Source: Tricharina praecox (Eukaryota). From it: a stretch of 64,000 nt of DNA. The position numbers were made by a program, and so were the translations under genes. The stretch covers positions 1 to 64,000 of the forward strand of contig NW_026250452.1 of the NCBI RefSeq assembly GCF_024521635.1, in the 5' to 3' direction. Positions 19,976-46,632 of this stretch are shown here, piece after piece. Within the stretch, counting starts at the first letter, position 1; every line of letters begins with the position of its first letter. The notes under the pieces were generated by a model. The model was not told the origin of the DNA and did no database searches. It saw only the letters and a list, made by a program, of their open reading frames with translations.

Positions 19976-19989
19976 GCGAGGGATGACGG

Positions 19990-20345
19990 AAGCCTCGACG
20001 GCAGTGACAGGCCTCGACGGCAGTGGCAGGCCTCGACGGCAGAGACAAGCATCTACAGCATAGTCAGCCTCGACGGTCGAAACAGGCCTCGACGATAGAA
20101 ACAGGCCTCGACGGCATAGACAGGCCTCGACGGCATAGACAAGCCTCGACGGTAGAGAGATATGCCTCGACGGCAGAAGCAAGCCTCGACGACAGAAACA
20201 AGCCTTGACGGCGGGTACAAGCTTCGACGACAGAACCAAGCCTTGACGGCGGGTACAAGCTTCGACGACAGAACCAAGCATTGACGGTGGGTACAAGCTT
20301 CGACTGCAGAGACAGGCCTCGACGGCAAAGACATGCCTCGACGCT
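19990..20345 (+). repeat. ~19-20-bp minisatellite GCCTCGACGGCAGAGACA(A/G), ~18 units
   Basis: Tandem units read directly. Confidence 0.9.
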
Positions 20346-22052
20346 CCGTCAATTCATTTCGCCGCACCGCGTAGGGTCTTACTTGCAGTTCTTCGCCGCT
20401 CGCCCTTCATCTCTCTCCCTCTCCCTCCTTTATAATTCACTAGAAATACCCACTCTTTCCCACTTCCTCACTCTCACGCTCCATTCTTCATCATCCACCA
20501 CCAACTTCCTCTATCTACATCTCTCTCTCATTAGCTCTACCATCCTCTCAACCATTGACTTCGTCTCTCTACCTCCCGAACGGGACCGCCCCGTGCTTGA
20601 TACATGCGCACATTCATTTACTACCACCCCTTCCACCACTATCTGCGACAATTTGAACCATTCCCTCGGCCCCTACCCCCCCCCCCCCCCCCCCTCCTCA
20701 CTACCCCACCAACATCCCATCAACCTCATCACACACTCTCCCCATCCGTTCTATCACACCAACATCCCCATCAACCTCACTCAACTCCTTTCCCTGATTA
20801 CTACCCCACCAACATCCCACCAATCTCATCCTGCTTTGCCCCCCTCCTCCCAACCCCACCATGAATCGTACGACATGCTCCTGCAGCTCACCACCTCACA
20901 ACTAAAAAACGATTCAAACCGAACACCACAAAGCACACACTATCACGCAGATATGTGCCCCAGCCGAACCGTCCTCTTCTCAGCTCTGCTTCAAAGCCTC
21001 CAGCCACCTCCTCGACAGCCATCACCAACCCAGTCGATTCCATTACCGACGACTTCGTCCTCCTCCTCTCTCTACCCCCCATCGCCGGTACTCAAAGAAA
21101 CGGAAACGTTGCAGCGAGCTTCGAGACTGCTGGTATGCCACCGCGGGGCGCCTCGTCATCTACACAGATGCATAGCTCGGTGCCTATTCTTCCGTGACGG
21201 AACTAGCCAGGAGATCCGACTGGTGGCTGCTAGAGAGAAGAAGTAATCCATGAGGAGGTGGAAGGCGTGGAGGATGATATCGAGTCAAGAACCGGCGGTG
21301 CCTACTCTTCAGTGACCCAAACAGTCACAAGATCCGATCTGGTGACTGTTAGGGAGCAAAAGCAGCCGATGAGGAGGAGGAGGACGTGGAGGGGGAAGAT
21401 GTGGATAGTGAAGAAGAGGAATTTGTTTAGAGCTGAAGGAGTTGTTATTTTTCTTGCCTACTTGAAAGGAGACGATGATATCAAGGAGCCATAGGAAGTT
21501 AAACATTGACCTTCCACCTGGAGGAGGAGGAGGTGGAGGCTAATAAGGTTTAGAGCTGAAGGAGTTGTTATTGTTCTTGCTTTCAATTTTATCGCAGATG
21601 ACTGCATCCTAATGACTGTGTATTATTTCGCGCTCGTCGCGACGCAACACCTGTAGTAGTCTCGTAGCCAGCCTGGTTTTTACATAGTCCAGTCTAATCC
21701 ATTCTATCACGGTCGATCGACGGAAGTAGACTAAAAAAACAATCTTACGAGCACAAACCCCCGTTTTAGATTTGTATCGCTCTGGCTACTGCTACTCGCC
21801 ACACGTGCTCCCCTTCGCACCACACAAACCGAACATCCTCGGTCGGACTGGATGTTTTATTGTCGACTACCTTAAAACATCACTCACAGCGATGGTGCCG
21901 CAGCAAATTGGATGCCGTAGGTGCATTGAGCGCTTAAACGTCCACACTGGACGTACTCCAGCCAATGCAAAAGGGTCACCAGCCGCTACTCGGAGCGATG
22001 TAGTGTCCCGGCGCAGCCAACGAGCGCAGGTTGACATCATGATGTACGTCTA

Positions 22053-22170
22053 AAGAGAGAGAGATGATGAAATGATTTCGCACGCAGCCTATCTAGACTA
22101 TGTCGAACCGTCTCACTGGTTTCCTGCCCCTCAAGCCGGTTGGTGAAGGGAGCTCGCTGCCGGCGGTGCT
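22053..22170 (-). mobile_element. Very short LINE 3'-end fragment
   Basis: AGAGAGAGAG...CGCAGCCTATCTAGAC end motif shared with the other LINE copies. Confidence 0.55.
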
Positions 22171-22224
22171 GTGCATCTTGGGCAGCGCTTCACGGGTGTT
22201 CAAGTGATGCACGTTTGACTACGC

Positions 22225-22722
22225 AAGCCTCGACGACAGAGAACAGGCCTCGAGGGCAGAGAACAGGCCTCAAGGGCTAAACAGCCCTCGACGGCACAGA
22301 CCGGCCTCGACGGGAGAAACAGGCCTCGACGGAAGAAACAGCCCTCGACTATAGCTAAAGCCTCGACGGCAGATACAAGCCTCCACGGCAGAGTGCGTGC
22401 CTCATCGGTAGAGAACAGGCCTCGAGGGCAGAAACAGCCCTCGACGGCACAGACAAGCTTCGACGCCAGGGACCGGCCTCGACGAAACAGCCCTTGACGG
22501 TAGAGACAGGCCTCGACGGCAGAGAACAGGCCTCGACGGCACAGAACGGCCCTCGACGGCAGAGAACCGCCCTCGACGGCAGAAAACCGCCCTCGACGGT
22601 AGAGACAGGCCTCGATGGCTGAGACCAGCCTCGATGGCTGAGAGCAGCCTCGACGGCAGAAACAGGCCTTGACGGCAGAGACCAGCCGCGACGGCAGCTG
22701 CGAGCCTCGACGGTAGAGACAC
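22225..22722 (+). repeat. GCCTCGACGGCAGA minisatellite, ~26 units
   Basis: Tandem units read directly. Confidence 0.9.
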
Positions 22723-25304
22723 AAGCAGTCGCAACGCTACGGCAATTCAATTCCACGCACCGTGTTGGATTTTAGCCGCAGATTTTCGGCGCTCGCCCCT
22801 CCTCTCTCTCTCTCTCACTCCTTTATCATCCACCAACAACATCCTCTCGCTGTATCCCTCATCTTACGACTCAATCATCACCTTCCTCTCTCTCCCTCTC
22901 CCTCCTTTATAATCCACCATCCACATCCTCTCGCTGTGTCCCGCTTCTTAGTACTTCGTCGTCACCTTCCACAATCTCCTTCCACTTTCTACCTCCTTCA
23001 CCATCAACTTTGTACCTCTTCCTCTCCATTACCCCAAAGTCATCTAGACGATAACCGCTCAACGCTCGACGCAACTAAAAACCATCTAACGAACATAACT
23101 TGACCCCCGGCGAAACACGCAAGAAGATTTCCGGAGGCGATCGCCCCGCGCGCAAGAAGCCCCGCCAGGCTCGGGACAGCACGGATCCAGAGTCGGAGAG
23201 CGACTGCGATTCTCCTTACACCGGGCAATACAACTACGACGAAGCTCGACCACGTTGGGGGTGGCTGTTGGGTTGCAAGAAGACCACCCTGGCCTGCGGG
23301 CCCCGGTGCCCGCATAGTTCAATAGCCCAGAGCCAGCATCGAGCTACGAAAGATGGAACGGGAGCTGGAACTGATGAAGAAGCAGTTCCAGAATGAATAC
23401 GGAGTCAACCATGACGCTGTCACCTCCGAGTAACCGCGGAGAGGCGAGTCTGCTTCCGTGGTTCAGAACAGAGCCACGTCAGTCACCGAGCACATGAATC
23501 CGAGATGGAGGAAGAGGGAGAAGAGGAAGGCGCGTGCTCACGCGAAAAGAGCATGGCTCCCATTGCTGGGGCGGAGAAGAAGAAGGCGATGAAGACGGGG
23601 GGGCAGTGGTTGGGGACGAGGTAGAGGTGGAAAAGGTGGCGGACAAGAAGAAGGCGATGAAGGCGGGGAGCAGTGGTTGGGGACGAGGTAGAGGTAGAAG
23701 AAGTGGAGGATAAGGAAGAGGGAGTGGTTTACAGCTGGAGTTGTTATTTTGTTGTCAACTATATGCGTTCAAAATTCAGCTTCGAGCATGTAAGACGGGG
23801 AGGATGACGTGGAAGAGGACGAAGATGAAGAGTTTTTGAGCTGGAGGAGTTGTTATTGTTCTTGATTTAATTTTACCGCAGATAACCGCATTCTCAATGA
23901 CGTTGTACCCTTTCAGGCTCGTCGTGACCATATTATGCTCGTAGGCTGCCATTTTTCACCATAATCTAGTCCAAAGTTCTCGTCGGTCCCGACGATTTCA
24001 CCTGCAGGGCTTCGTTTCCCCGTCTACCTATCCCACCATTAACATCCTCTTCCTCCCTCATCTTTCTTCCAAATGCACGATCGACTTCATCTTTCCACCT
24101 CCCCCTCCTTCCTACCCCACCATCAACAACCTGGACGATCACTCCACACCGCTCAAAGCAACGAAGACCCACATAGCCCACCAAATCAATGTACAGACAT
24201 GAACTGAAACTATGGCTTCCACCAGGATCATACCGACAGCACACCGGTCATCCCCTTACCCGCTCGGCCTCAGATTACAGCGGCACCTCCTCCACGACCT
24301 TCACACAAGATACCCGATACCGTTACCGACGATTGCCACCTTCAATCTTGGCCTTCCTGGCGCTACCGGCCACCAGCTTGGCGATTGAGGACGACGCGCG
24401 TAACGCCGACAAGCCAGCGGCTCCCCCGCCCAGCAAGCAGGTGCAAACACCAACAGCCACTAGAGCCGCCCGGTTAGCTACTGGCGAAGACGAGGAACAC
24501 CGGATGTGAGACGAAGGAGAAGAGGAGGATGAGGAGGAAGGTGAACCCTCCTTCCCGAACGACCAGGGTGAGGAAGGTGAAGTGGAGGAGGATACAACCG
24601 GCAAGAACGGTCGCCCTGAGCGTAAGAAGCCTTGCCAGGCGCCGGCCCGCAAGGTGCTACTAACGTGGAAAAAGAAGACGACGTATCGTGCGGAGAAGAT
24701 GATTAAGAAGAAGAGGAGGACGAAGACGATTAAGACGAAGCGGGAGAAGAGAATAATCCAGACGAAGAGGAAGACGTGGCGAATGAGGAAGAGCAAGGGG
24801 TTTAGAGCTGAAGTTTTTGTTGTTTTTCTTGTCTTCTTGCAAGGAGTCGAAACAATCCGAGAACAGATGGGTGCAATCTTCAACGTAGAGCATGATATCG
24901 TATTGTTGCTTTGCATTTTATCGCAGATTACTGCGTCCTGGTTCCTGAATGACTTTGTACCCTTTCAAACTCGTCGTGACCGAATACAGATGTATAGTAG
25001 GCGCACAGGCAGCCAGTTTTCTAGATACTACAGTCCAGCCTTCCCGACGCCTGGACGGAACTGTAATACAGTCATCCAGTACGTCTGGGGGTGTCTGCTG
25101 GAAGTTCTACTCCACCCGTCAGTTCCCATGGTAGGGATCGCAGTCGACTGCCAACACGTGTACACGTAAAACGGAAGAAACATAAGGGGACACGATTCAT
25201 ATGAGAGAAAGCTCAGGCATCCACACGGACTACGTAGAACGCAATTGCCATGGATCTCGAACAGCGCGTCACGGGTGATCAAGAGATGAGTGCATGACAA
25301 CGCT

Positions 25305-25515
25305 AGCATCGACGGCAGAGACAAGCCTCGACGTCAGTTACAAGCCGCGACAGTAATGACGAGCCTAGAAGGTAGAGACAAGCCTCGATGGCAGAGAAAA
25401 GCATCGAAGGCAGAAACAAGCTTTGACGCCAGAGACAAGCCTCCACGGTAGCAACGGGTCTCGACGGCAGAGTTAAGCTTCGACGGCAGCAACAGGATTC
25501 GACGGCAGAGACATG
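25305..25515 (+). repeat. GCCTCGACGGCAGA minisatellite, ~11 units
   Basis: Tandem units read directly. Confidence 0.85.
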
Positions 25516-26179
25516 CTCCGGCGGAAGCGACACAAGCAGTAACGACGCTACAGGTATTCAATTCCACGCACTGATTAAAGTTTTCCCTGCAGGTTTTCGC
25601 CGATTCCCCTTCCTCTCTCTCCCGCTACTTTCTGCTCACTCCACAATCCACTTCTACTTTTACCGTTTCTCTCTCGATTACCCCACGTCAATAGACGATA
25701 ATATCCCACCGCTCGACGCAACTACAAACCATATAACCCACCACAACTTGACAGCTCACAAGGATCACTTCCGCCATCCGTTCGTAAGCTCTGACCTTGC
25801 TGGCCTGGTTGGTATTGCCAGTGCCTTATCCCTGATTTTGTCCACTCCACTGACGAGAAGGGTGACTAGGTTACGGTCGGATCTGTGTTTTTGTTTCTTT
25901 CAATTTTTTCGCAGATAACTGCATCCTCAATGATTTTGCAACATTTCAGGCTCGTCGTGACTCGTGACACAATCTTTATAGCAGGCTCGTAGACAGCCAG
26001 TGGCCCGGTGTTCTTGATAGTACGTTCCAGCCCAGTCTTTCCCGACTAAATGAAACACCGTGTGAAAGGAGTAGAGCCGCCCGCCACCACTAACTAACCA
26101 CGCCGTGAAACCACCATATACACCTCTCCTCACGATATCGAGGCTTACGAAGACGCAATACCATCCGGGGAGCCTGATC

Positions 26180-26801
26180 AGAGAGAAATCTCCCTGTTTT
26201 ATCTCGCATGCAGCCTATCTAGACCATGGCGACCCCACGACCTCCGTTCCTGTCCGCCCTGACCAGTCGAGGTGAAAGCCCCGGTACCGACCAGTCCGAT
26301 GAGGCGCACCACCTTCCCTGCCCATCCGCCTCGGGCCGACACAAGTAACAATTATATTGACAGTAAAGACCGGTATGGGCCCACATGCCCGCTCCTCCTG
26401 CTGCCCTTCGCCTCGCTTCCCCGTCATTTGCTTCCCCTCTAGGACCTATCATCGAGTATCCTCCTCTCCCACGTCCTCGCATCGGCTGCAGCTGCAGTAC
26501 CCTGCTTGGCACTCTTGCTCTGCCCCCGATGCGATGCTTGCTTCCTCCTCATCCTCCTCCTCCAAGTCTTCTAAAGCTCTTCTCTGGACATCTCTGGTTA
26601 CTAGATACTCCAGGATTACCTCGCTGCACCGCTCGTCGGCAAACAACTCCGCTATCGACCACTTCTCTTTCCTTCTCTCCGTCTCCTTCCGGACCTTTGC
26701 GCACAAGGCTTTCCGTTGACTTGTCCACCGTAGGAAGTTTTTGAATAGACGCTCACGGGACAGCTCAGTAGGGCTGTTGCACCACCAGCAATGATCGTCA
26801 T
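26180..26801 (-). mobile_element. 5'-truncated Tad1-like LINE with ~16-bp TSD
   Basis: Minus ORF CWWC...SRERLFKN.LRW...WSIAELFADERCSEVILEYL resembles the degenerate C-terminal zinc-finger region of fungal LINE ORF2. Flanked by TCCGG(G/A)GAGCCTGATC at 26164-26179 and 26802-26817. An uninterrupted paralogous site lies at ~42385-42415. Confidence 0.82.
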
Positions 26802-26849
26802 TCCGGAGAGCCTGATCCATGGATAGTGCTTTTCACGAAACTATGTGAT

Positions 26850-27098
26850 TGAGTGATATGCTGTGATAATGCTACCCGGATGAGCTGTTCTCGTACTCTC
26901 ACAGTCTCACTGTAGTAGGCTTTAAAGTACGAAATACTTCGTGGACGAAGAATATGTGTCGTAATTGTTCCGGCACGGTGGGCTATTCGAGTGCGGACTA
27001 CTTCTTGGACGAATAACAGAAGGCGTAATCGTGCGCTCACGATAGTGGAAGTAAGGAATACTTCGTTGACGAATTCCAAACGCCCGTATGATCAACCT
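26850..27098 (+). repeat. ~60-bp tandem repeat block (TACTTCGTGGACGAA units)
   Basis: Three units; collinear with 42655-42915. Confidence 0.75.
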
Positions 27099-28548
27099 AC
27101 ATATACGGTGAAGAACGTGGTGGAGAAAATAATGAAGATGTCTCGAACGGCGGCAACGAAAACAATGCAGAATAGAAGGATAAGGAAGAGGTGGATTCGG
27201 AGGGTGAGAATAAGGGCGGTGACCGTGTCACAGTTGAGTTTGTGTTTTCACTTCTTTCAATTTTATCGCAGATAACTGCATCCAGATTACTGAATGACTT
27301 GTACCCTTTCAAACTCGTTCTGAACGAATACCTAGTATGCATCGTAGGCGCATACGCAGCCAGTGTTTTAGTTACTACACTCCAGCCAACTTTTTCCTGA
27401 CGCATCGACGGAACCGTAATACAGTCATCTAGTACGTCTGCAGTTGTGTGCTGGACGGTCCACTCTATTTGTCAGTTTGGATGGTACGGATTGCAGTCGA
27501 CTGCCAACACGTGTACATGTATATCGGAAGAACCATAAGGTGACACGATTAATAGTATGACAGTAAGCTCAGGCCTCCATATGGACTACATAGAAAGCAA
27601 TTGCAGTGGACCTAGCGCATCGCTTTACGGGCGATCGAGCTATGAGCGGATGACAACGCAAATCTCGACGGCAGTGACACGCCACAGTAACAAAACTACA
27701 GCATTTAATTCTACGCACAGCGTAGGGTTTTACCCGCAGGTTTTCGCTGCCCACGCTTGCCCTCTCTCCCACTCCCTTCTATATAAACCACCATCAACAC
27801 ACTCCCTTCTATATAAACCACCATCAACATCCTCTCTCTCTCCCTTCTTACTACACCATCAACACCTTCCTATCTATCCTTCCACTTCTACCTACTCCAC
27901 CATCACCTTCGTCCCTCTCCTTTCATTCTCTACCTACTCCAACATCCGCTTCCTCTTTCTACCACTTCCTACCGATTACCCCAACGTCTACTAGACGATA
28001 ACCTTCCATACCTTGGCAATGTCCCCCTGGCCTGCGAGCCCCATCCACACACCTCGGCGACGTCAGCAACTATCAATCGACAGTCAACGGCCTCCTGACT
28101 TGGTGGCCTCGCAATTTCGCCTTGGCCTGCAGGCCCCGGTGACCGCACTGCTGCGGTGTTTAGACAGGTGCGTCACTTCCCGGCGATCACAACTCATGCG
28201 AGTGATAACCACTGACTCCCTCCATAGCCCCATCGCCATCCGATATCCCATCGACCACTCGGAACGAACGAACGATGAACCATAGTCGAGGTGGCGGCGA
28301 AGACCATTGCCGCTCCGCCCGCAGTTCAGGAATACCTGCACTTCCGGGCCACCCCTCCCCTCGCACCACCAGAGTGCACTGCGCCCTACGCAGGCTGTGA
28401 CCGACCTCCACTGGAGTGTTCGGTCGCAGCGAGGGGGAAGGCGGGCTGCACCTACCGGTTAAGTGTACGCGTAGCTACATAAGCACCACGGTGCTTGTGC
28501 AACTGAGCGTACACCTACCTAGTGCAGCCCACGTGCCCTTTGCACCGC

Positions 28549-28934
28549 GGTCCCAAGGGTGTAGATGATGTCTCAATTGCGATTGCGGGTGTGGAGCAAC
28601 TCCATCCATTCTACACTCCCCCCCTTCTCCAGCTCCGTCACGAGCTGGAGAAGTATCCCAACGTGGAGGAGACTATTTGGACTCAGGATGAGCCCCTGAA
28701 CCCCGGTGCTTGGGCTTACGTCTAACCCGGCATGGAGACCATCATCAGATAGTCTTCAAAACATTCGGACAAGCACATCCGAACCCGGTGCGCTGGTCGT
28801 GCGCCTAGCGCATCGACTGCTACCGGGCCCGGTATCAAATCAGGCCACGTCATGGAGGACAGGGAGGAGGGGGAGCAGCTGCAATGACGACAAGCTCTCG
28901 GGCTGTCGCCATTAGAATATGTGCTCGAGAATTG
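28549..28934 (+). pseudogene. KGD1: Captured 3' fragment of 2-oxoglutarate dehydrogenase E1
   Basis: IAGVEQLHPF...LRHELEKYPNVEETIWTQDEPLNPGAWAYV*...AGRAPSASTATG matches the OGDH E1 C-terminus (EQLHPFP, EEPLNAGAW, YAGRAPSAS motifs); contains a stop and frameshifts. Confidence 0.85.
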
Positions 28935-30784
28935 ATGAGCTTTGTTTCCGATTGCTGGAGGGGTGTAAGGAGGGGTGATGTTGGGTTGTTTTTGGTTTGT
29001 CTTTACATCTATTTTTGTATTTCGCTTTACATGTATGTATTTTCGTCTTTCGTTTTGCATGAATGATGAGTTTTCCATCGTTTCTATCTTTTCCCTGGCT
29101 TTCTTCTTATTCGGCTACGGTGGCTATGTATGATTCTTACATGCGGCTTGTAAAAGAGTGGGGTAGCTCATACGTGTGACGCAGCCAGACTATTTCTCCA
29201 TAGGTAGTAGTCTTGAGAGCTTTGAAGTCAGGAGCAAACTGTGTCGAAACGCGTTAGGAGAGCTCGGTAAGGTTGAAATCACTGGATGCCTGTATTGGCT
29301 GGACCTCCTTGAGCACATCCCGTCGCTCGGTGTAGGCACAGACAACAGTCTTCTGTGTTCAAAAAAGAGTTTAAAAAGCACAATCATCGTTCTCGTGTTA
29401 CTATGGCGTACAACCAACTGCAAATGCCAACTCTCCCGCGTCGTGTTCAATCATTACAATATATCGCATGATCCCACATATCCGCATACTGTATTAACCC
29501 GAAATTCCCAATACGAACAGAAACATTCGAATCCTCACCACCTCTCACCACCTCTCACCACCTCTCGCACGATCACCGCCCAGAGGGAGCAAGCAACACC
29601 TCCAGCGGATCGATCCCGCCCACATCGACGCCCATAGTCCCCTGAGGCCGAGGTGGACGTCGTCAACAGCGGCAGAACGCAGACACGTGCAGACGGACTC
29701 AACGTGTTCGAGGCAGCGTTCGACTGCAGTCGACTGTTAACAAGTGTACACGTAAATCCTAAGAACTATAAAGTGACATGAATCACAAGAAACAAAAGCG
29801 CAGGCTTCCAATATAAGGGCAAATAAGTCGGACTAAGCAGAACGCAAGTGCCATGGATCTGAAGCATCGCTTCACGGGTGATCCAGCGATGTGCGCTTGA
29901 CAACGCAAGGCTCGACGGCAGTGGCAAGCAAGAGTAACGACGCTACGGCAATTTGATTCTACGCACAGCATAGGGTTTTAACCACAAACCTTTGCCGCCC
30001 ACGCTTGCCCTCTCTCCCACTCCGTCCTTTATAAACCACCATCAACATCCTCTCTCTCTCCCTTCTTACTACATCATCATCACCTTCCTATCTATCTCTT
30101 CACTTTCTACCTACTCCCCATCACCATTGTCTCCCTCCTTTCACTTTGTGCCTACTCGATCATACTTTCACAATGTCACCCTGGACTGCGGGCCCCATCC
30201 GCATACCACGGCAACATCAGCAACTCCAAATCGACAGTCAACGGCCTCCTCTCTCACCGTACGACATTCAACTAGCTACGGAAATGGTAACGACCTCGCT
30301 TTGGTTGAACCTGCCAGAGGCTGTGGGGGTGACGTACGTATTGTCCTCGCAATTGCGCCCTGGCCTGCGGGCCCCGGTGACCGCACTGCTGCGGTGTTTA
30401 AACAGGTTCGTCACTTCCCGGCGGTCACACCCCATGCGAGTGATAACCACTGACTCCCTCCATAGGCGCATCGCTATCCGATATCCCATCGACCACTCGG
30501 AACGAACGAACGATGAACCATCGGCAACAGCCCGTCCTACCCGTTGCGATCGAGGCAGCTGCGATCAAAATCGCCGCCCCAGGCCACCCATCCCCTCGCA
30601 CAAATAGAGTGCTCTGCGCCGTGCGCAGGCTGCGACCGACCTTCACTGGAGTATTCGGTCGCAGCGAGGGGGGAGGCAGGCTGCACCTGCCAATCAGGTG
30701 TACACGTAGCTACATAATCACCACGGTGCTTGTGTAACTGGGCGTACACTTAACCGGTGCAGCCCGCCTGCCCTTGACACCACG

Positions 30785-31173
30785 GTGCCAAGGGTGTGGA
30801 TAATGTCGCAATTGCGACCGCGGGTGTGCAGCAACTCCACCCATTCCAACCTTCCCCCCCGCTTCTCCAGCTCCGTCACGAGCTGGAGAAGTATCCCAAC
30901 GTGGAGGAGACTGTCTGGACTCAGGATGAGCCCCTCAACGCCGGTGCTTGGGCTTTTGTCCAACCCGGCATGGAGACAATCCTCAGACAGTCTTCAAAAC
31001 ACTCGGACAAGCAAATCTGGACCCTGGTGCGCTGGTCGTGCGCCTAGCGCATCAACTGCTACTGGGACCCGGTATCAAGTCGGGCTACTTCGGGGGAGCA
31101 GGACGAGGGGGAGGAGCCGTTATGGCGACAAGCTCTCGGGCTGTCGCCATCAGAATAGGTGCTCAACAATTGA
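30785..31173 (+). pseudogene. KGD1: Captured KGD1 3' fragment, copy 2
   Basis: VEQLHPF-like...ELEKYPNVEETVWTQDEPLNAGAWAFVQPGMETILRQSSKH, frameshift, then AGRAPSASTATG. Confidence 0.85.
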
Positions 31174-31250
31174 TGAGCTTTGTTTCCGATTGCTGGAGGG
31201 GTGTAAGGAGGGGTGATGTTGGATGGTTATTGTCTTTCGCTTTACATGTA

Positions 31251-31878
31251 CTAGTAAACATCCGTGTGGCGACCACGGTGTGTAGTCGTTTGGCCAGCGT
31301 CACTTAATGTAAAGGCATAGGTATGTACGTTGCGGTCGAGGCGTATTTGTGGGAGACACGATGTAGATGCCTTGTAGTATTTGCCGTGTGTTAAGCGTCG
31401 CGCTCTCTACCACCATTACACTCTTTGAATCGTACTCCAGGTCTCCAGAAAGCAAACGCAATGACGGAAAGTGATTGACTGTAGGTTCCGCAGTACGCTC
31501 GCTAGAGTGAGCTCGAGCAGGTACAGTCGGTTCAATCTGTGGATCTAGCGGCATCGTAACTTCCGCGGCATCATTCGAAATACGATCTTGCAACATAGGC
31601 TCAGTATCTGCCTCTGTTGCACTGCTATCCTGATAAATTCCATTCTATTAGAGTCCCCGAAGATCTACAAATCTAGCAATGTAACGGCAGCGCATTCGCT
31701 CTGCAGTATCGTCCCTAAAGCTCCTCCATGGCTCTGCTCCAAAATATCAGGGCTGGGCAGTCGCTTCGCTCCAAAATCCGACGGTCGGAAACTTAGGGTT
31801 GAACCACGGAAATCGCCACCGTGAAACGCCACACTAGCCACCGCAAAATGCCGCACCACTGCCCTTTATAGGAATAGA
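31251..31878 (-). mobile_element. Non-autonomous Helitron (628 bp)
   Basis: On the minus strand it starts TC, ends CTAG, and sits between A and T with no TSD. Subterminal hairpin CCGTG-N7-CACGG (31262-31278) lies 7 nt from CTAG. Removal restores TTTACATGTATG..., matching the empty paralog at 29021-29070. Confidence 0.85.
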
Positions 31879-32950
31879 TGATTTGTTTTGTCTTCAGTTT
31901 TGCATGAATGATGACTTTTCCATCTTTTCCATCTTTTCCCGGGCCTTTTTCTTATTCGGCTGCCATGGCTATAGTTTTAGCATGAGGGTTGGAAAAGAGT
32001 GAGTGGAGGGGACGATGGAAAGCACGAGCTGTCTGTCTACTTTGAGACGGAAGCTGTTTGTTTGTGCACCAGTATGCATCTTCCCATTCATAAGTTACCC
32101 ATTTACTATTTACCATTATGACTAATAATCTGCTATTTCGGTTCGTATTATGTAGTGTCCGTTCGGCCAGACCGATGGCAACACAAATGTCGTTAACTCT
32201 TGAGAAAGAGATGCGTAGCCCCTCCCAAGCCTTGCTGACCATCGACCAACGAATTTGCGACTCTACTCCATCGCATTTGCTATGGTCCCTGACCGTGGCC
32301 GGCCGAATTGAATCTTTGACGCTCCCCGCTCCGGAATTAATTCTCAAACTATATATCGGCCCTAGTCGGCCCAATCCACAGGTTCTGGGTAATTCATCCA
32401 GGCCAGTCCCGCAATCAACGAGTCTACGAGACGAGCTACACGATTAGCAGCGAACCTATGATTCACTCTACCACCACTCTGGCGCCGCCTCAACAGCGGG
32501 TTGAGGTTGGGGCCTCGACCTGTCGGCGGTTGCCAACGAGGCAAGGGCGATCTTACTGTGGCAGCATGCAGGACAAAGTTGCTCGGCGGTGTGGTACGGC
32601 AAGTTGATCCGTAACAAGGTAAGCTAGTGGGCGGAGTGCATCTGGATGTGTTCTTGTTGCAACCTAGAGCTTCTGAAGGCGACTGGGCGCGGGGATTAAA
32701 ATCTACAGTGCTATACGTAGTAGCCCGGGAACAGGTGCGGGTGGCCGCTTTTGAGTATAGAGGCAAAACAATGAGGCGAGATGAATCGCATGAGAAAAAG
32801 TGCCGTCCAGAGATATGGTTGCCCTGATGGCGTAGAGTTATCCCACCAATGTACAGTTATGGGTAGACTGCACGGATGTCGTATGGGTGAAACTGCACCG
32901 ATCTCATCCAGCCTGTCTGATTACGTAGAACATACGTGTACGCTGGTTCT

Positions 32951-33210
32951 AGAGAAAGAGAATTCTTCATTTTATTTCGCATGCAGCCTACCTATCTAGA
33001 CCCAGTGTTCTCTATCGTCCGGTCCGTCCGCCCTGGGCCTCGGACGAAGACGGACCGCGTGCCTGCCGTCCGTCCGAGCCTCGGACATGACGAAGAAATC
33101 TTGCAACTGTCCGTCCCAGGCTCGGACTGTCCGCCGTTTTGGCCATCCGTCTCGTCCGGACGGCCGTCCGGACCGGACGATGGAGAACAGTGTCTAGACC
33201 ATGGCGAAAA
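32951..33210 (-). mobile_element. LINE 3'-end fragment interrupted by a MITE (5' extent uncertain)
   Basis: AGAGAAAGAG...TTTTAT.TCGCATGCAGCCTA...TCTAGACCATGGCGA matches 26180-26232. Confidence 0.6.
33003..33192. mobile_element. hAT-type MITE (190 bp)
   Basis: 24-bp TIRs CAGTGTTCTCTATCGTCCGGTCCG / CGGACCGGACGATGGAGAACAGTG (2 mismatches). 8-bp TSD TCTAGACC at 32995-33002 and 33193-33200. Empty site at ~26210-26232. Confidence 0.9.
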
Positions 33211-35879
33211 CGTAGCACCCTGGTTCTCCCGCAGCGCTGCACGAGTCCTCACTCGCGGTACAAGTGGCAACTCAAGCGCTGATGGCAGCGAAAATCCACG
33301 GTAGAGAGGGAAGCGTCCCGTCGTGGGCCAGTGGAAGCCCCATCAGGTCGCTCGATGCAAGCCGGGTTGGGCAGTGGCGTGGAGTCGGGGTGGGGGAACG
33401 GGGTGATATTGCCATGATCTCTACTCAGGGTTCATGCGAGAACAACTGACAATGTCTCTGTCTCTCGACAGGCCACAGAAACACCGCTACGACAACTCAG
33501 TGCCAAGAATAGCGTGACTTTGTAGCCGCAGAGGGTCTCCTCCACCCAATGCTTGCTCTGTATCCCTCTTCTTCCTGCCACGGGAGCCGATGGGTAGAGC
33601 AGCACGTAGCATGCTTCGAGTGTGCCAGAGAGCGGTCACCTGTCTGGGCAACGGTGAGTCTCGACAGAGGCCAGTGTCTGATAGTATGGGGCGGGGCGCC
33701 AAGATTGCTGGACATGACTGAGACTCGATAAGTCACGAGCGGACCTGGGCAGACATGTGTGCACTTCTCTACTTCCGCAGAAGGACTTTCACGGACATGC
33801 TTCGAACAATTGTGTTTGTTGTGATTGTTTTTGTTTGTGGACATCGTCGTCGACAGACCTCATGCGGTCGGCCATATTTTGTGTTTTCGCCGCCCACCCA
33901 TATATGCGGGGTAGCCGTTCTCATCTCTTTTCGACTTCTGTCTCGCTACTTTACGTTTTCATATTTTTTCTTGTGTTGCTTCTGTTTTCTACAATTGACA
34001 AATCTCATTCTCTCAATCATAACCCCCATCCGTGGGCCCTTACCACTCCATCATCAACTTTCTTTTTCTACATCCCCCTTCTCAGTACGGCTCTACTCCA
34101 CATCTACGTCGCCGCCTCACCCCTTCGCAAAAACACTCTTTCCATAGTTGCAAATTCACACATCGATCCGCTATCACCCCTGCTTTAGACGACCCCTCGT
34201 TCTTAACAGTCCTCCTCCATACCACGTCACCTTCATCCCGAACTATCCGCTCAACTTCCTCACTCTCCCCCGACCCACGCCTATTCCAGCCATCAATCGT
34301 ACGATACCCATTCACCTCACGAAACGTCGCAACTATAAGCCATATAACCCCACCACCAACAGCCTCGAACGAACTCATACCCCCCTCCCCGCCTCCCCGA
34401 CATACACCCCCAACGTCGTCCCGGCTACCTCAACACCCACCTGCCCATCGTGGTTGTCGCGAAATCGTCGTCCCTTACGTCAGCATCCCCTACTTCTGGA
34501 GAAGTTGGATTTATTGGGCCTGGAACTGAGTTCAGAGGAGGAAAAGACACGATGGAGGACGAGGGGGACGACGAGGACTATATCGCCCACGGGAAATCTC
34601 AGCAGCTTGATTCCCGTCATTTCTCCTCATAACCTGACAGACGACGAGTATCCCGGCACGGAGAACCCTCATCAAGCCACAACAGCCTCGCAAGACGGGT
34701 CTCTATTCCAGTACGGCCATGGAATACGAGTCAGTCTCCCACGATTCAAGACCACAAAGAAGAAAGCCTCTACTCATGGGAAGAAGGAAAAGACGAGGAT
34801 AACGACGATGGGCAAGAAAGAGGAGGAGGCAGACAAGGCGACGAGGGTAGAGAGGAAGGGGAAGATGAACAGCAGAACGAGGGGGAAGCGGCGGTGCTTC
34901 AGAGCTGAAGGTATTTTTATTGTTCTTGTCTACTTGTGTTTTGAAGAAGCCTTCCAAACACAGATGGGCGCTAAGTTTGACGCGGAGAATCAGATCTTGT
35001 TTCTGCTTTCAATTGTATGGCAGATGACCGCATCGTTAATGACTTTGTATTTTCTCTAACCTGCCGGGAAAAAGTAGTATGAGGGCCGAATACGTGGACT
35101 ACGATGTAGACGAGGAGGAAGATGTGGAGGATGAGGAAGGGGACAGATTTAGAGCTGAAGGAGTTGTTATTGTTTTTGCTTTCAACTATATCGTAATTAA
35201 CGGCATCCTCAATGACCTTTTATCCTTTTCAGTAGTCGTCGTGGGAGAAGATTGATAGTATGCTCGTTGGCTGCTAGTGTTCTACATATTCCAGTCCATT
35301 ATTATCTGACCCGAATGTTTTACCCGCAGGCGTGCTTCTCACTCTTCCTGACTTTCTCCCCCGCATTCCTACCCTGTCAGAAAATTCGTGTTTCTACCTC
35401 CCGCTCGTGCTGAGTTCTTAGTACTTCCCCAAAACCTCCTCCCTTTCCGTCCCAGGGAGGCGCTGCAGTCGACTACAGTCAACTACGAATAGTGGTCTCA
35501 GTTCACGAGCGAGACAAAAAGAGTGCAATTAATGATTAAACAAAAAAAAAAAAAAAAAAAGCGAAGATCCACAGTGGCGTCGCTGCGACGACTCAATTGA
35601 AAGTACTGCGCGGGACATAACCCGCAAGGATTCCCCTCCACCCCTACATCCCCCCAATTCTCCCCTCTTCCTAATCCACTATCAACATCTTCCTTCTTCC
35701 GCCACATTCTTCGTACTCAACCATCAACTGGACGATAACCTCCCACCGCGTAACGCAACTAAAAACCATTCAAACCAATCATCTTCACCTACAAACCTAC
35801 AACCCACCAGACAACGTTTGGCCGCTACAATACCCCACCTGCAACCCGAAATATCCCGACCCCAGGACAACTTGGATGC

Positions 35880-36770
35880 CTAGTGCCCGGTCCTAGTTCC
35901 ACCGCCACATCTTGGCCTTCCTGGCCGCTCTCGGCGCCATTTGGGCGATCGAGCACCAGCGAAACTCCGCCGACATTGCAGCGGCTGCCCCAACTTCTGA
36001 TCTGTGGCCACAGCGCCATCGACGATCCGGACGCATCGATCGTATTCGACGAAACGATCCAGCGCCTCGACCAGCCGGAGTTCGACGACATCCGTGACGA
36101 CATCATCGTGATCTATCTCGGACAGTCGAACCAGCTCCTGGACCCCGCCCAGTGATGCCGGGATCAACGCGCCACCACGGTGGCGAAGAAGAGATCGAGG
36201 AGACCGATGATGAAGACGAGGAGGAGGAAGCCTCCACCGAATTTTCGGAGGTCGACTTTGAAGAGGAGGCATCCTCCGAGTAACACTCCTCCCCCGAAGA
36301 CTCGGAGGAGGAAGAAGACAAAGAAGCCGATGTCGGTGAGGAGGACGAAGAGGGCGAAGATGAAGAGGTCCTAAGAGGTGCTCATAACGAAGGACCTTCG
36401 CGATACGATCGCATAATGCGTGCGCTGGGCCCACCGCCGGCAAACTCTCACATCTATCCGCCATCACCGATAGTCGATTACCTACCGTTTTCTCCGATGG
36501 CGACGGCATCGAGAGAACTGACTCCGATCCGACGAGGAGGTCAACAGACGTCCCACGCGAGCTCGAATGACCAGTACGGCAGAGGTCCTCATGCCGATTT
36601 CGACGACAATCGTGAAGCACGTATCGAAGGGTAAGCAATTCTTGTGTTCGATGAGGTCGGATGTTTACTGACGTTTAAAAGTTCTTTTCCAAGACCATTC
36701 AATCAGCTCCTCGTACGGCGACAACGAAAACGGTGCTGAGGAGGAGGACGAGGAAGGGGGGGGGGGGCGG
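35880..36770 (+). pseudogene. Disrupted acidic-protein coding segment with an intron remnant
   Basis: Reads GGEEEIEETDDEDEEEEASTEFSEVDFEEEASSE*HSSPEDSEEEED... then GTAAGC...TACTGAC...AAG near 36631-36681. The same acidic module recurs at 39540, 40020, 40190 and 41820. Confidence 0.5.
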
Positions 36771-37334
36771 AGGAGGGTGTGCAGGTTACGGTCGGATCTG
36801 TTTTTTTCTTTCAATTGTATCGCAGATAACTGCATCCTCAATGACTTTGTAACCTTTCGGGCTCGCTGTGACCCAATATGTATAGTAGGCTCGTGGCCAG
36901 CCAGTGTTCTAGATAGTACAGTACAGCCTAGTCTTTCCCTGCCCTTTCGCGGGACTGTATTTTAGTCATCCGATTCTTCTGCAGGTGTATTCAGGACGAT
37001 CTGCCCCTCCGGGAACGTTGAAGGAAACGGAGTGCTGTCGACTGCAGTCGAATTCCAACAGTGGTACCCATACAACGGAAAAACTGTAAATCTGGCGTTC
37101 GGCGATGAGTTCCACCGCACGACGGCTGACCGAGCGCCGGACGACTAAGACGCTGCCGGGCTATTAACACGCCGCCGAGGACATCACGGTCGGCTGAGAA
37201 TCTGGAGCTTTGCATATAGAGAAGTCTCGCTGTTCTTTATGTTATACGGTATCTATAATATCATCCATTCAACAAAAACAATAGAGCGACATGACGACAG
37301 GAGAAAACGCTCCCTCCAGAAAAATGACTGCCAT

Positions 37335-37580: not shown

Positions 37581-38299
37581 CCGATTCTACTGAGGTCAGT
37601 GGAATCGGAGCGAGCTCGTACAGCCTGCCCGGACTTTGTAAAACCCTGTTTCTGCCGCATCGCTTCACGGATCCTCACTGGCGTCGCAGGTGGCAACTCA
37701 TGTTGGAATTGAGAGAATAACTTGACTTGATTGATGTGTTGTTACAAGAAAGAAGAGAAGGAAGACTGCATATAAGGGAAACGAGCTCGGGTAGACGACG
37801 AGTAGACCGGGTTTCAAACAGAGGATGCGACGATAGTCGTCGCCGGAATGGGCTGGTGGCTTGAAGGCTTTCAGCTGACGAGGCTGATTCTAATGAGAAG
37901 CCAAAGACAATGCTAAGCAACCACGAAGAAAACGAGGACAGTATGCAAAGGACAGTGGAAAGTAGCAGTGACACCGGAACAGGTAATAAGACGCATAATA
38001 TCAACAACTCATGTTGAGAATACGAGTGTGTGATTGATATTTTTCAGTTGCTCGATTCACTCGCAGAACACAGCGAATGACCAGCTCGAAATACCCGAGA
38101 GTAAAGCAGAAGAAGAAGCAAGTATGAGAATAAACAGGTTGCTCGAGGCGCACTCGAGGAGGCGCAAAACCTGGCGCATATGACCAATATGACAAGTGTG
38201 CAATATCTTGGACGAGTGACCACGGTGGCTTTTCAGCCGAGTCGTATCAACTCATGCCTCGACGGTAGGGAAAACCCAACGGATGACGCTACGGTGATT

Positions 38300-38451
38300 C
38301 GATTGAAAGTGCCGCGTAGGGCTTAACCCGTAGGGTCTCGCGTTTCCTTCGTCCTCTATCTTTCTCCGCTTCTTCCGATTGAAAGTGCCGCGTAGGGCTT
38401 AACCCGTAGGGTCTCGCGTTTCCTTCGTCCTCTATCTTTCTTCGCTTCTTC
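38300..38451 (+). repeat. Near-perfect 76-bp tandem duplication within a promoter-like block
   Basis: CGATTGAAAGTGCCGCGTAGGGCTTAACCC...CGCTTCTTC twice, one mismatch. Confidence 0.9.
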
Positions 38452-41400
38452 CTACTCCACCACCAGTTTTCTTTCTACCCTCCCATCTTACTACAGTTCT
38501 ACTTCACAATCAACTTCCTTTCTCTCGAGCTCCAACCTTATCACTATTCTAACATCATCGCCCTCGTTCTACCTTCCCCTTCTCACCACAATTCTACTCC
38601 ACTCAATCTCTTCTCTCTCCCTCCCCCTTCTACCTCCTCAACTATCAACTTTCGCTCTCTTTCCCAACAGCTTGGCGTACGGTACGTAACACTTACGTAA
38701 CACTTACTGCTCCTGTCCTCCGCGATGTTCCATCCTTCTTTCACAGTGACTGAAACCATTCTCTGCCGGAGACTTCCCTTCCTACCATCCCCTAATCCAT
38801 CCCCATCGTTAGCTGTCCCACACATGAGACGCTTTGATTATCGTGTGTACACGTCGGAAAAGAAATAAAAGTGCTAATATCTCTTGCGCAACGTTTACAG
38901 GCGGCGAATCTCACATCTTGCACCTGATACAATCAGACGTGCTGCTACCTCTGACCGGCCCGTTGAATCCGGCCAAATCGCTGCCGAAGCTCGCGCAATC
39001 CTCGTTGCGGACGCAGGAGGAGATTGCTCCGGCCGCTGGCGGCTTCCGCGATCGTGAAGTCTTGCGGACGGCACAACAGGAGGGAATGCGCCAACAGATG
39101 TTGGTCGCCTCCGGGTCCGAGTGGCCTCATTCGCGCCCGACGAATACAGGAAGAAGTGTGGTCCCGATGCTCGGACACCCCCACAGGCACCTCCGAATGC
39201 GAGGATAGTGTCTATTTGAGACTCCAGTGCTACCATTATCCGGGGCTCTAAGCTTCGCTCGATCGAATTTCTGTTTTCACCCGCTCTCACTACGCTCTCC
39301 CGGAAGGATGAGATGAGGGGTAGGCTGGAAGGTGCGCCCGTGAGCTTACATCTGCTCCAGCCCAACCATCGTCCGAGCTTCAGGGAGCGGGGCCAATTGT
39401 CACACCTACCCTCCTCCCTCCTCAAGAAGGACAGCCCTCGCAGCCCACTCCAACTTTGTCCAAGTTCAAAACTTGGCCCTCCTGGCCCCCCTCCCGTCAC
39501 ATTTTGGCAGTCGAGGAGGGGGGGGGGAGGAGCCACAATGGTGGCGAAAGAGGAGGATGAAAGGGAGAATGAAGATGACGAAGAGGAGCAAGCCTCCTCG
39601 GAAGATGCGGAAGAAGACCCTTCCGTTCAATCGCCGACATCCCTACACGATCACATCGCAATCAATCCCAACAATCAATCCGAACGAGCGATGAACCGAC
39701 CGCAGCCTAGCTGCTAGCCCCCATGCAATGGGGGCGCAAACCAGCCACCAGGGTGGCGAAGCAGAGAGGGAGGTGGGCTTTCTCGACCGCTACCAGCATT
39801 AAGTCCGGACATATCAGGGAGGAGGATGAGCTTCTGAACCAGGCTATGGGACAGTCCCCATTGAAGTAATTCCTCTGGGGCTGTCGCCATTGGAGTATTT
39901 CCTCCGCGGGTTGTCTCCGTTGGGATAGTTGGTCTGGAATGAACTTTGTTTCCGCGCAGTTAGCGGGATGTAGGGGGGGGGGTGTTGGGATGTTCTTTGC
40001 TTTCTCTTTACAGAGATGGGGGAGAGGGATGAAGAAGAGGAGGAAGCCTCCTCCGAAGACTCGGAGGATTGTTTGGAAACGGAAGTTTCCTCCGAAGAAC
40101 ACTCCTCCGAGGAAGAGGAGTAGGAGGATGAGGACTACGATGACGAAGACGTCTCGTACAGCGACAACCACAACGATATCGGGGAGACTCGGAGGATTGT
40201 TTGGAAGAGGAAGCTTCCTCCGAAGAACACTCCTCCGTGGAAGAGGAGGAGGAGGATGAGGACTACGATGACTTGGACGTCACGTACAGCGACAACGACA
40301 ACGATGCCGGTGAGGAAGACAAGGAAGAGGAGGATAAGGGTGGCCTAATTACCGTCGGTTCTGTGTTTTTCTTTCTTTCTGTTTTATCGCAGATAACTGC
40401 ATCCCGATTACTGAATGACTTGTACCCTTTCAAACTTGTTATGACTGGATGACTAGTATGCATAGTAGGCGCATAGGCAGCCATTATTCTGGTTACTACA
40501 GTCCAGTCGACTTTTTCACGACGCATCGACGGAACCGTAATACAGTCATCCAGTAAGCTTGCGGTTGTGTGCTGGACCGTCCACTCTATTTACCAGTTTG
40601 GATGGTACGGATTGCAGTCGACGGCCAACACGTGTACATGTAAATCTGAAGAACCATAAGGTGACGCGATTCATAGTATGAGAGAAAGCCCAAGCTTCCA
40701 CACGGACTATGTAGAACGCAAATTGCAATTGTTGTGGATCTAGGCCATCGCTTCACAAGTGATCGAGCTATGAGCGGATGACAACGCAAATCTCGACGGC
40801 AGTGACACGCCACAGTAACAAAACTACAGCAATTTAATTCTACGCACTGCGTAGGGTTTTACCCTCAGGTTTGCGCCGACCAGGCTTGCCCTCTCTCCCA
40901 CTTCCTCCTTTATGATCCACCATTAGCATCCTCTCACTCTCCGTTCTTACTACATCATCATCGCCTTCCTCTCCATCCTTTCACTTTCTACCTACTCCAC
41001 CATCCACTTTCTTTTTCTACATCTCCCTCTCAATTACCCCACAGTCAAGTAGACGATAACCTACCATAAATTGGCAATGTCATCCTGGCCTGCGGGCCCC
41101 GTCCACACTCCACGGCGACGTCAGCAACTCGTCAAACCCTTCACAATAACGAAAACCTGCGAGGAGGCAGGCTGACACCGCGTTGCCAAGGCAAGGCGGG
41201 CAGCACCTGCCGCGGTCAGGCGTACGCGCAGCTACACAAACACTTGCAACGGCCTCCTCTCTCACCGTAATACATAATACATTCAACCAGCTTCCGAAAT
41301 TGCAATTAACTTGCTATGGCTGAAGCTGCCAGGGCTGTGGGGGTGGCGTACGCGGTGGCTTCACAATTTCGCCCTGGGCTGCGGGTCCCGCCGGTGACCG

Positions 41401-41544
41401 CACTGCTGCGGTGTTTAAGGTGCGTCACTTCCCGGCAGTCACACCCCATGCGAGTGATAACCACTGACTCCCTCCAAAGGCGCATCGCCATCCGATATCC
41501 CGACAATCGCTCCGAAGGAACAAGGGATAAACCATCAGCAACCG

Positions 41545-41690
41545 GAGCCTCAACCGCGGCCGAGGCCTGGCATCAAGTCAGGGCACATCAGGGAGGAGGG
41601 GGAGGAGGGGGAGGAGGGGGAGGAGCTCCAGTGGCGACACGCTCTCGGGCTGTCGCCATTAGAATAGGTGCTCGAGGATTTATGAGCTTT
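41545..41690 (+). pseudogene. KGD1: KGD1 extreme 3' remnant followed by the shared 3' flank
   Basis: GGCATCAAGTCAGGGCACATCAGGGAGGAG...CTCGGGCTGTCGCCATTAGAA...ATGAGCTTTGTTTCCGATTGC, as in the other copies; a more decayed remnant lies at ~39790-39955. Confidence 0.7.
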
Positions 41691-42654
41691 GTTTCCGATT
41701 GCTAGAGGGGTGTAAGGAGGGGTGATGTTGGGTTGTTTTTGTTTAGTGGGGTGTAGGGAGGGTTGTTGGGATGTTTTTTGCTATCTCTTTACAGAGATGG
41801 AGGGACATCCTAACCACTGAGGTGGCGCGGAAGAGAAGGATGAGAAGGATGAAGAAGATCAGGAAGCCTCCTCCAAAGACTCCAACGATTGTTTGGAAGA
41901 GGAAGCTTCCTTCGAAGAACACTCCTCCGAGGAAGAGGAGGAGGAGGATGAGGACTACGATGACGAAGACGTCACGTACAGCGACAGCGACAACGATGTC
42001 GGTGAGGAGAGCGAAATGGACGAGGACCAATACGTCTCGTACGGCGACAACGGCAACGATTTCTGTGAGAAGGACAAGGAAGAGGAGGATAAGGCTGGCC
42101 TGATTACCGTCGGTCCTGTGTTTTTCTCCCTTTCAATTTTATCGCAGATAACTGCATCCTCAATGATTCTGTAACCTTTCGAGCTCGTCGTGACCCAATA
42201 TGTATAGTAGGCTCATGACCAGCCAGTGTTCTAGATTGTGTAGGTAGTCCAGCCCAGTCATTCCAAATCGATTAAAATTTCGTGTGTAAGGCTTAGAGCC
42301 GACCGCTACCACCAACCCACGACCCCGTGAAACCACTACTAAAAATTCTCCTCACGGTATAGAGGCTCCTGAAGATGGTCCACCATCCGGGTCGCTTGAT
42401 CCCAGTATAGTAGTTTTCGTGTGTGTCATAATATCTCGAACTTCCGTTTACCGCCTCACTTCCGTGAACCGTGTCATGAGAGATCACGCGGACTTTCATC
42501 ATCCGTTCTCACACGGAGGTTGCGAGCGGCGGCGTGCGGCCTCTATCCGAGGCATCCCCACGCCATCCTGCATATATGTCTCTCCTTCTGTCGTGTCTGA
42601 TACAGTGGACACTATCTCACGATACCACTTTTCCTGACAGTGTGACTAGTACTC

Positions 42655-43205
42655 GATCGAGTGATATATTGTGATAATGCCACGAGTATGAGCGGTTCTC
42701 GTGTCCTCACAGTCTCACTATATTAGGCTTTAGAACTATCAAATATTTCGTGGACGAGTACGATGTTGCTTAATCGTGCTGGCACGGTACGATACTCGAT
42801 TACAACGGACTACTTCTTGAACGAATACTAACGTATGGCTCAATCATCCGCTCACGGTCTTGCAAGTCCGAGGTACTTCGTTGACGAATATTGAATGCCG
42901 CTGTGATTCACCTCCCCATTCGGCCCAAATCGTAGGTAGTCGACAAGAATAGTGCTTCTCACGTGACTATGCGACCGAGTGAGATATCGCAACGGGAATG
43001 AGTGTTCTCGTGCTCTCACTGCAGGTCTCGAAACTAGAAGATACGGAGTACCTTCTTACTGGACGAATACCGAATGGCGTCATCATGTAGTCATAGTAGT
43101 AGGTGTTTGAGCACGGTATGCTTCGTGGACGAATAACAGATGGCTTAATCGTGCACTCGCGGTGGTGCAAGTAAGGACTACTTCGTGGACGAATACCTTA
43201 TGACT
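42655..43205 (+). repeat. ~60-bp tandem repeats (two blocks)
   Basis: About six TACTTCGTGGACGAATA-like units. Confidence 0.75.
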
Positions 43206-46486: not shown

Positions 46487-46632
46487 CTTGTTGCTGCTGG
46501 TAGTACACTGTAGGTAAGTAGCCGGATTAGATGTCGAACGGTAGGGGTGATGACGAAGTGCAAAGATTAAGGGAGAGAAGATATACCCTTCGATTGTCGG
46601 TGGAGCTGGAGATGATTTGGGAATCGACACTC

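Follow-up and report, generated by a model that had tools for sequence, protein, structure and literature searches.

We analysed a stretch of 64,000 nucleotides of Tricharina praecox DNA (contig C51, positions 1-64000; hereafter the window), which carries an array of repeated units. T. praecox is a Pezizomycete, and its assembly comprises 38.4 Mb in 104 contigs, labeled here with C-numbers. The complete units are bounded by a head block (H) and a tail block (T), and pieces of host genes were captured behind the shared head. We consider it probable that the units belong to an orphan gene family evolving by birth and death, a decaying branch of which collects DNA-templated insertions. Both components of this combination, an orphan tandem gene family and templated capture, are already known.

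Self-BLAST of the window gave 170 off-diagonal high-scoring pairs with 66-99% identity, mostly within 19.9-43.2 kb and in an inverted set at 52.7-57.3 kb. A 23-nt tail anchor occurred 9 times with up to 5 mismatches, vs 0 in each of 10 shuffles. Both blocks were located by profile search, which found 9 H and 10 T within 20316-42258, all on the forward strand and forming 7 complete head-to-tail units, and two inverted heads further on, at 54.4 and 56.9 kb. A sequence-only reading of this DNA had described a co-oriented array of repeated blocks, and these results confirmed it. The head-to-tail row held in part: direct tail-spacer-head junctions were found only at about 25.0, 27.4, and 40.5 kb, and elsewhere other repeats lie in between. 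The extent given to the array held for 20316-42258 but overlooked two inverted units at 52.9-57.3 kb. The blocks also recur across the genome, with H or T matches on at least 18 of the 104 contigs. In 697 kb of stretches picked around such matches, 81 H and 66 T profile matches were counted, some of them partial or doubled.

The nature of the unit was indicated by compact relatives outside the window. At C47:37-50 kb and C39:1363-1369 kb, H and T flank tandem units of 0.7-0.8 kb with open reading frames (ORFs). The encoded proteins are acidic, low-complexity sequences of 100-136 aa; they begin Thr-rich, and a short helix (LEFLAxLAEL or LAILALVA type) and then D/E/M-rich sequence follow. Five compact units are intact, with the ATG 143-223 nt past H and the stop 23-30 nt ahead of T, and two more end slightly early. 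Because both blocks flank compact ORF genes on C47 and C39, H is an upstream region and T is DNA on the 3ʹ untranslated side. The sequence-only reading had inferred an unclassified non-autonomous element or a tandem recombination hotspot and had named one ordinary gene family as the finding that would speak against it; the same blocks do flank ordinary small genes elsewhere. H may act as a promoter. The TATA box listed among the shared parts is not general, as TATAWA was close to only 6 of 57 strong head matches. The acceptor-like AG described as a conserved 3ʹ feature occurred in 24 of 29 tails of the cargo type and in 0 of 32 of the compact type, and T was therefore rejected as a conserved splice acceptor. 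T as a structured RNA or a known RNA family was also rejected, since 0 of 4 pairs covaried, no conserved tail fold was found, and 19-44 kb gave no Rfam match.

Insertions and deletions in the compact units are of a coding type. Among six ORFs of C47, 78 of 98 pairwise gaps were multiples of 3, compared with 16/46 in H, 26/106 in the leader, and 8/38 in T. The dN/dS of these ORFs was 0.71-0.77 in 15 non-independent pairs, and divergence of H was 0.28 vs 0.30 at synonymous sites in the six copies. A homologous ORF between common flanks, with indels of this kind, points to a protein-coding multigene family, and two family members are annotated as hypothetical proteins. A homolog search with the acidic protein (8000 scored candidates; 1.84 billion representatives) returned only the two proteins of this genome and a weak match to a bacterial polyketide synthase (E 3.8e-4), which we regarded as chance. 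ESM Atlas gave no usable feature match, and the predicted template modeling score of the structure model was 0.19. Two exact-pattern scans of metagenome contigs with the head core gave 0 matches, which does not imply absence. No description of this family was found in the literature searched, which was mostly open-access. The intact proteins of C47:37-50 kb (L090, L125) show alternating hydrophobic and acidic runs, e.g. M-D-I-E-I-E-M. C47 is also rich in NACHT-ankyrin genes, and any link of these to the acidic proteins is speculation.

The units of the window belong to a branch that has lost the ORF. A FastTree phylogeny was built from 27 H+T pairs, which after filtering included only a single unit of C51. 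In it, the long units of cargo type (C51, C25, C39:550-650 kb) grouped in one clade (support 0.96), separately from the compact ones. The cargo-bearing clade comprises units on C51, C25, C10, and part of C39 (550-650 kb). None of the 7 complete units in the window keeps the family ORF, while the helix motif ILAFLA persists in two window units (24345, 35909).

Host-gene pieces between common H and T blocks, as the sequence-only reading proposed, were found repeatedly. Seven donors were traced on different contigs, with slices of 60-1,500 bp that are 75-96% identical to the donor. Three of them are represented in the window: KGD1 (donor C1:1971746, about 75%; the KGD1 fragment named in that reading matches PF16870 with E 1.9e-16), a glycosyltransferase-1 gene that we take to be trehalose synthase-like (C28:1568550; 155 bp, 88%), and an Arm-repeat gene, presumably Vid28-like (C8:912651-913535; about 710 bp, about 80%, intron included). 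The other four are a GH20 gene (C21; 202 bp, 96%), a gene without Pfam match (C39:1428 kb; 285 bp, 77%), a LON-domain gene (C32, duplicated on C18; 246 bp, 85%), and GTP cyclohydrolase II (C20; 169 bp, 93%). The slices came from DNA searches blind to strand or from a Pfam scan of both strands, and 7 of 7 were in sense orientation to the head, for which a coin toss gives 1 in 128. Both of the two slices that span an intron keep it. The LON-domain donor gene occurs twice with the same ORFs, at C32:314-320 kb and at the C18 end, probably by assembly overlap or recent duplication. Two C25 units (L047:7900-8450, L049:3400-4000) share a protein-like slice that had no Pfam match and no traced donor.

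In donor coordinates, KGD1-derived DNA begins about 450 bp ahead of the stop and extends about 1 kb past it. The KGD1 copies on C51, C25, and C10 share derived bases, which indicates one capture followed by duplication and fragmentation on these contigs. In the copies at 28.5 and 30.7 kb, the 5ʹ junction of the slice runs forward, inverted, and forward again (fold-back junctions at 28454-28600 and 30694-30816). The 202-bp GH20 slice is a clean insertion, and the sister unit C25:3885-5150 lacks it. An unlinked donor, an empty sister, and a template-switch scar are the marks of templated insertion, and these slices would qualify as such; junction microhomology was not clearly resolved.

We propose the following course of events. 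The unit would have been a gene, made of an upstream block, a pyrimidine-rich leader, an acidic orphan ORF of about 120 codons, and a 3ʹ block. As its staggered ends show, the family spread through tandem and segmental duplications whose breakpoints were not fixed, presumably by unequal crossing-over. One branch (C51, C25, C10, and C39:550-650 kb) has lost the ORF and has acquired, time and again, short DNA copies from genes not linked to it. The likely route is templated insertion or template switching during break repair in a repeat-rich region; templated insertion in break repair is favored because introns are kept, donor flank is included, and a fold-back junction is present. Cargo-bearing copies were then duplicated again, as seen for KGD1. 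The sense bias would be best explained if units are transcribed and lose antisense inserts that would silence the donor.

Several points weigh against this account. Many compact copies contain in-frame stops. The C47 ORFs were preselected as open, which inflates the frame signal, and random substitution alone would leave 25-46% of such ORFs free of stops; since the ORFs were chosen open and the pairs are non-independent, the gap pattern shows coding origin and not present function. Capture that is sense-biased, intron-keeping, and stepwise is also the pattern of Helitrons, and because the copies are 65-85% identical, the ends of an old element could have eroded. The concentration of slices in units is only suggestive: 148 filtered unit ORFs (about 39 kb) gave four donor families and one match below cutoff, while a control of 300 of the 565 filtered ORFs between units of a single contig, C25 (about 49 of 98 kb), gave no slice and two matches below cutoff (4 vs 0, p about 0.04). 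Four loci in this control (zf-PARP, Hsp70-like, IIGP, and aldo-keto reductase) were read as whole genes. In addition, LON and transaldolase-like slices are joined three times on C8 (406.5-413 kb, 332-338.5 kb) without H or T, and these chimeras do not support a capture exclusive to H/T units. A stronger version, in which a host gene subfamily without transposon ends or enzyme serves as a capture platform, its transcribed copies favoring sense slices of unlinked genes through transcription-linked repair, with tandem re-amplification and occasional expressed in-frame chimeras such as the 132-aa ORF described below, seems doubtful to us.

We then considered whether the unit is a mobile element. 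The cargo clade might be an old non-autonomous rolling-circle element (Helitron- or Helitron2-like) or an unrecognized one, which took the acidic gene first and then fragments, and whose ends are eroded or lie beyond the blocks examined. The tandem copies, the stepwise capture from several donors, the kept introns, the 7/7 sense orientation, and the lack of target-site duplications (TSDs) all suit this explanation, as does a T conserved to about +140 across 25 aligned copies, some of which have a CTAG at one site. Homology, however, does not stop at the CTAG site but goes on into various flanks, mostly spacer toward the next H. The left homology limits of dispersed copies (19 flanks read, 54 aligned) vary, the extremes being about 110 bp upstream of the H core and the inside of the preceding tail; right ends were also spread in pairwise end mapping, to which we give little weight because divergence confounds it. 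Of 58 tails, 4 had a hairpin and CTRR followed by T, the Helitron 3ʹ end, which was seen in 12% of 500 random windows. Common Helitron termini (5ʹ TC, 3ʹ CTRR) were not found, the ends being staggered, in a test that 15-35% divergence weakens. As to the asymmetric terminal inverted repeats and terminal hairpins that mark Helitron2/Helentron elements, the T profile had no inverted match in 54 head flanks, a search that a 12-16-bp repeat could escape, and the tails gave no conserved fold. No RepHel or transposase was present in 56 long ORFs (53 from 561 kb near arrays, 3 from donors), the part of the genome scanned, and compact relatives resemble plain genes. We judge this explanation unlikely. 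Terminal inverted repeats (TIRs) with TSDs, as in Pack-type elements or miniature inverted-repeat transposable elements (MITEs), were not found for the unit. Flanking direct repeats of at least 9 bp were found in 20 of 45 units vs 33% of mismatched-pair controls; the excess is weak, and no shared position could be established for it. An array of long terminal repeats (LTRs) or of terminal-repeat retrotransposons in miniature, which should show TG...CA direct repeats at both ends and a 4-6-bp TSD, was rejected, since H and T differ in sequence and have no fixed ends; the same inspection passes a solo-LTR-like repeat at 37701-38006. The earlier statement that the unit lacks a transposase, TIR, or LTR of its own thus agrees with these searches, while its suggestion of a non-autonomous element with its own ends conflicts with the staggered boundaries and the failed Helitron end test, and a mobile-element reading is not supported.

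The sense orientation and the position between head and tail would also follow if reverse transcriptase switched between unit RNA and other RNAs, and the cDNA recombined back into a unit or inserted as a retrocopy, as for the WEIRD-MGL chimeras of Magnaporthe (PMC2104539); SINE-like (short interspersed nuclear element-like) and LTR elements are abundant here. Such RNA-level chimeras are very unlikely in our view, because the intron is retained in both of the slices that span one, KGD1 homology continues about 1 kb beyond the stop, and copies keep upstream DNA with no consistent flanking direct repeat. A chimeric retrogene with lost introns, a TSD, and a retroelement 3ʹ end was rejected on the same grounds. 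The idea of a chimeric-gene nursery, raised in the sequence-only reading, would require H to be an active promoter and some fusions to be selected. In its favor, a 132-aa ORF at C25:88827-90330 includes the GTP cyclohydrolase II slice in frame, dN/dS of slices against donors was 0.07-0.35 in 13 comparisons and for 4 of 6 non-KGD1 donors fell below 0.5, the value that a constrained donor and its neutral copy should give (p<0.05), and KGD1 copies among themselves had a pN/pS of 0.42. Against it, pN/pS between sister slices was 0.76 for the Arm gene and 0.74 for the C39 gene, with changes spread evenly over codon positions, and the synonymous excess lay mostly on the donor-side branch: differences common to all copies were mainly synonymous (31 synonymous and 18 nonsynonymous, vs 36 and 54; Fisher p 0.013). 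Together, these values indicate that the copies drift roughly neutrally. The donor-side excess is larger than equal mutation rates predict, and diverged donor alleles or introgression are possible reasons. KGD1 and Arm slices moreover contain frameshifts and stops, and an ATG out of the ORF lies ahead of the 132-aa ORF. With no ORF kept in the window units and sister slices near neutral, a working nursery appears unproven, and we regard it as quite unlikely. Decay of the copies by repeat-induced point mutation or at CpG was rejected: C>T was even, at 0.07-0.09 in all four contexts, and T>C was alike at 0.09.

Birth-and-death tandem orphan families occur in fast-evolving fungal regions. The array resembles them in its tandem and dispersed paralogs, many pseudogenes, weak constraint, and NACHT-ankyrin and HET neighbors, and differs in that one branch systematically carries foreign coding slices. 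Pack-type elements have inverted repeats as outer blocks. Like Pack-MULEs and other Pack-type elements, the array has small pieces of unlinked genes flanked by conserved outer blocks, but these blocks are not inverted repeats and have no TSD. Maize Pack-MULEs are reported to lack an orientation bias, in contrast to the 7/7 sense slices of the array, whereas 78.6% of the slices captured by maize Helitrons are sense, and antisense purging was proposed there too (bioRxiv 10.1101/777037). The array resembles gene-capturing Helitrons, namely HELPO1 of Pleurotus (PMC4289320), the Helitron2 FoHeli of Fusarium (PMC5148889), and those of maize (10.1101/777037), in its DNA slices from multiple donors, sense bias, tandem copies, and lack of TSD. 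A canonical Helitron has a 3ʹ hairpin and then CTRR, and is inserted before T (PMC4289320); compared with the fungal elements (PMC4289320, PMC5148889), this 3ʹ end, an asymmetric inverted repeat, common ends, and a nearby RepHel were not found in the array. Its frame is also, unlike that of Helitrons, a host-type gene with intact relatives. In its product the array resembles Helitron or Pack capture, while the tests for the ends of such elements fail, and ends may have eroded. Templated insertions at double-strand breaks in yeast are copied from distant loci, and inverted pieces of the same locus arise by fold-back or template switching (PMC11724301), similarly to the KGD1 junction with its inverted piece of the same locus. 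Those insertions were observed as individual events in the laboratory and became more frequent in RPA and rad27 mutants (PMC11724301), in contrast to the insertions of the array, which are old and fixed, have been duplicated again, cluster in a single gene subfamily, and show a sense bias. The chimeric retrogenes WEIRD-MGL/MINE of Magnaporthe (PMC2104539) are likewise fungal chimeras that reuse one 5ʹ sequence; the array differs in having no 3ʹ part from a long or short interspersed nuclear element, no terminal direct repeats, and kept introns.

Fragment capture is usually credited to Helitrons, Pack elements, or retrotransposons, and here a branch of an orphan family shows it without element ends. 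The captures form a dated series (75-96% donor identity), for which cargo-free relatives and empty sister copies serve as controls. If the enrichment and sense bias hold genome-wide, the branch would be a natural system for studying a possible steering of templated insertion by transcription and a possible purging of antisense captures, and would bear on the origin of many orphan genes in Pezizomycetes; if they fail, it would be a pseudogene graveyard in a repeat-rich region.

The individual units are as follows, on the forward strand unless stated. Unit 1, which has lost the family ORF, lies at 20316-21701 (head 20316-20459, tail 21571-21701). Unit 2 (22704-23974; sister C25:101627-102696) contains an internal 67-bp repeat at 23570-23719; the 60-bp repeats reported earlier are in fact of periods 67, 50, and 128 bp. 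A headless unit at 24010-25041 holds ILAFLA and a tail at 24901-25041. The unit at 25516-26036, with a middle of 226 bp, has an internal deletion relative to its longer sister C25:37322-38573, and an orphan tail block lies at 27245-27389. Two units without tail carry KGD1. The first (27664-29122) is composed of a head (27664-27804), a module, and a 3ʹ slice (28543-29122). The second (29909-32753) is composed of a head (29909-30058), the module, a slice (30777-31249), and KGD1 downstream flank (31924-32753), and is split by an unrelated dispersed repeat of about 630 bp at 31250-31879 inside the KGD1-derived DNA. The module, about 480 bp at 28060-28545 beside the KGD1 slices, occurs on C51 only, in 5 copies. 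The unit at 33466-35298 has two tails (34996-35109, 35170-35298) and a sister at C25:116031-117714. The unit at 35559-36932 includes the second ILAFLA and the glycosyltransferase slice (35988-36142), and its cargo also has an intron-like stretch (GTAAG...CTGAC...AAG) at 36630-36680, for which no donor was found. The Arm-repeat slice (38694-39407) lies in the unit at 38256-40510 (sister C10:132222-133730), together with small KGD1 pieces (39782-40012) and an acidic duplication of 128 bp. The last forward unit, 40792-42258, contains KGD1 bits (41213-41243, 41613-41793) and an acidic module. On the reverse strand, a head and KGD1 slice lie at 52943-54576, and a spacer, head, and KGD1 slice at 55788-57244, both found by self-BLAST and profile.

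Other repeats are interspersed with the units. Self-BLAST and alignments placed the tail-to-head spacer at 25041-25300, 27389-27664, and 40510-40792, and inverted near 57021-57244. The palindrome-rich upstream block of the sequence-only reading corresponds to this spacer in part, and another part of it is a separate SINE-like element. Pieces of the latter lie at 19560-19960, 22055-22200, 26180-26805, and about 32960-33000, with remnants upstream of units 1 and 2. This high-copy family (more than 30 loci) is about 630 bp long, with one sharp end (26180 here) and the other variably truncated; the copy at 26180-26805, probably on the reverse strand, is flanked by a 15-bp direct repeat with one mismatch. 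A MITE-like element with TIRs (33003-33193) lies within a SINE-like remnant, and the solo-LTR-like repeat mentioned above (TG...CA, ACTCA duplication) is found at about 20 loci among the matches listed. Tandem Repeats Finder detected 19-bp minisatellites on the forward strand at 19990-20343, 22227-22697, and 25305-25513, which derive from tandem amplification of an H-consensus motif. Another short repeat family, in which a TACTTC..GGACGAATA motif recurs, flanks the array (26847-27074, 42655-43197, 19000-19500).

A subtelomeric setting was rejected, as no telomere repeat was found at the examined ends of C51, C25, and C47; one is present at the far end of C39. By Pfam, long ORFs near arrays included genes of the NACHT-ankyrin and HET kinds, as well as a single Ty3-type pol at the far C51 end, a Ty3/gypsy-type ORF of 956 aa at C51:78.4-82.5 kb (reverse strand; L065:4395-8507), near the contig end. 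At 1371-2972 and 2747-4291 (forward strand), ORFs of 533 and 514 aa from stop to stop have CxxC-x4-H-x6-8-C knuckle-like motifs and no Pfam match. A SNF2-type helicase gene (PF00176, PF00271) on the reverse strand at 43761-46500 includes a 15-bp repeat encoding DDEPK, present about 10 times, and upstream of it lies a complex tandem repeat with periods of 38, 72, and 140 bp (47062-47860). Between the array and the inverted copies, an apparently intact gene at 49800-52377 (forward strand), whose 569-aa exon has no Pfam match, presumably resembles a fungal Zn-cluster transcription factor.

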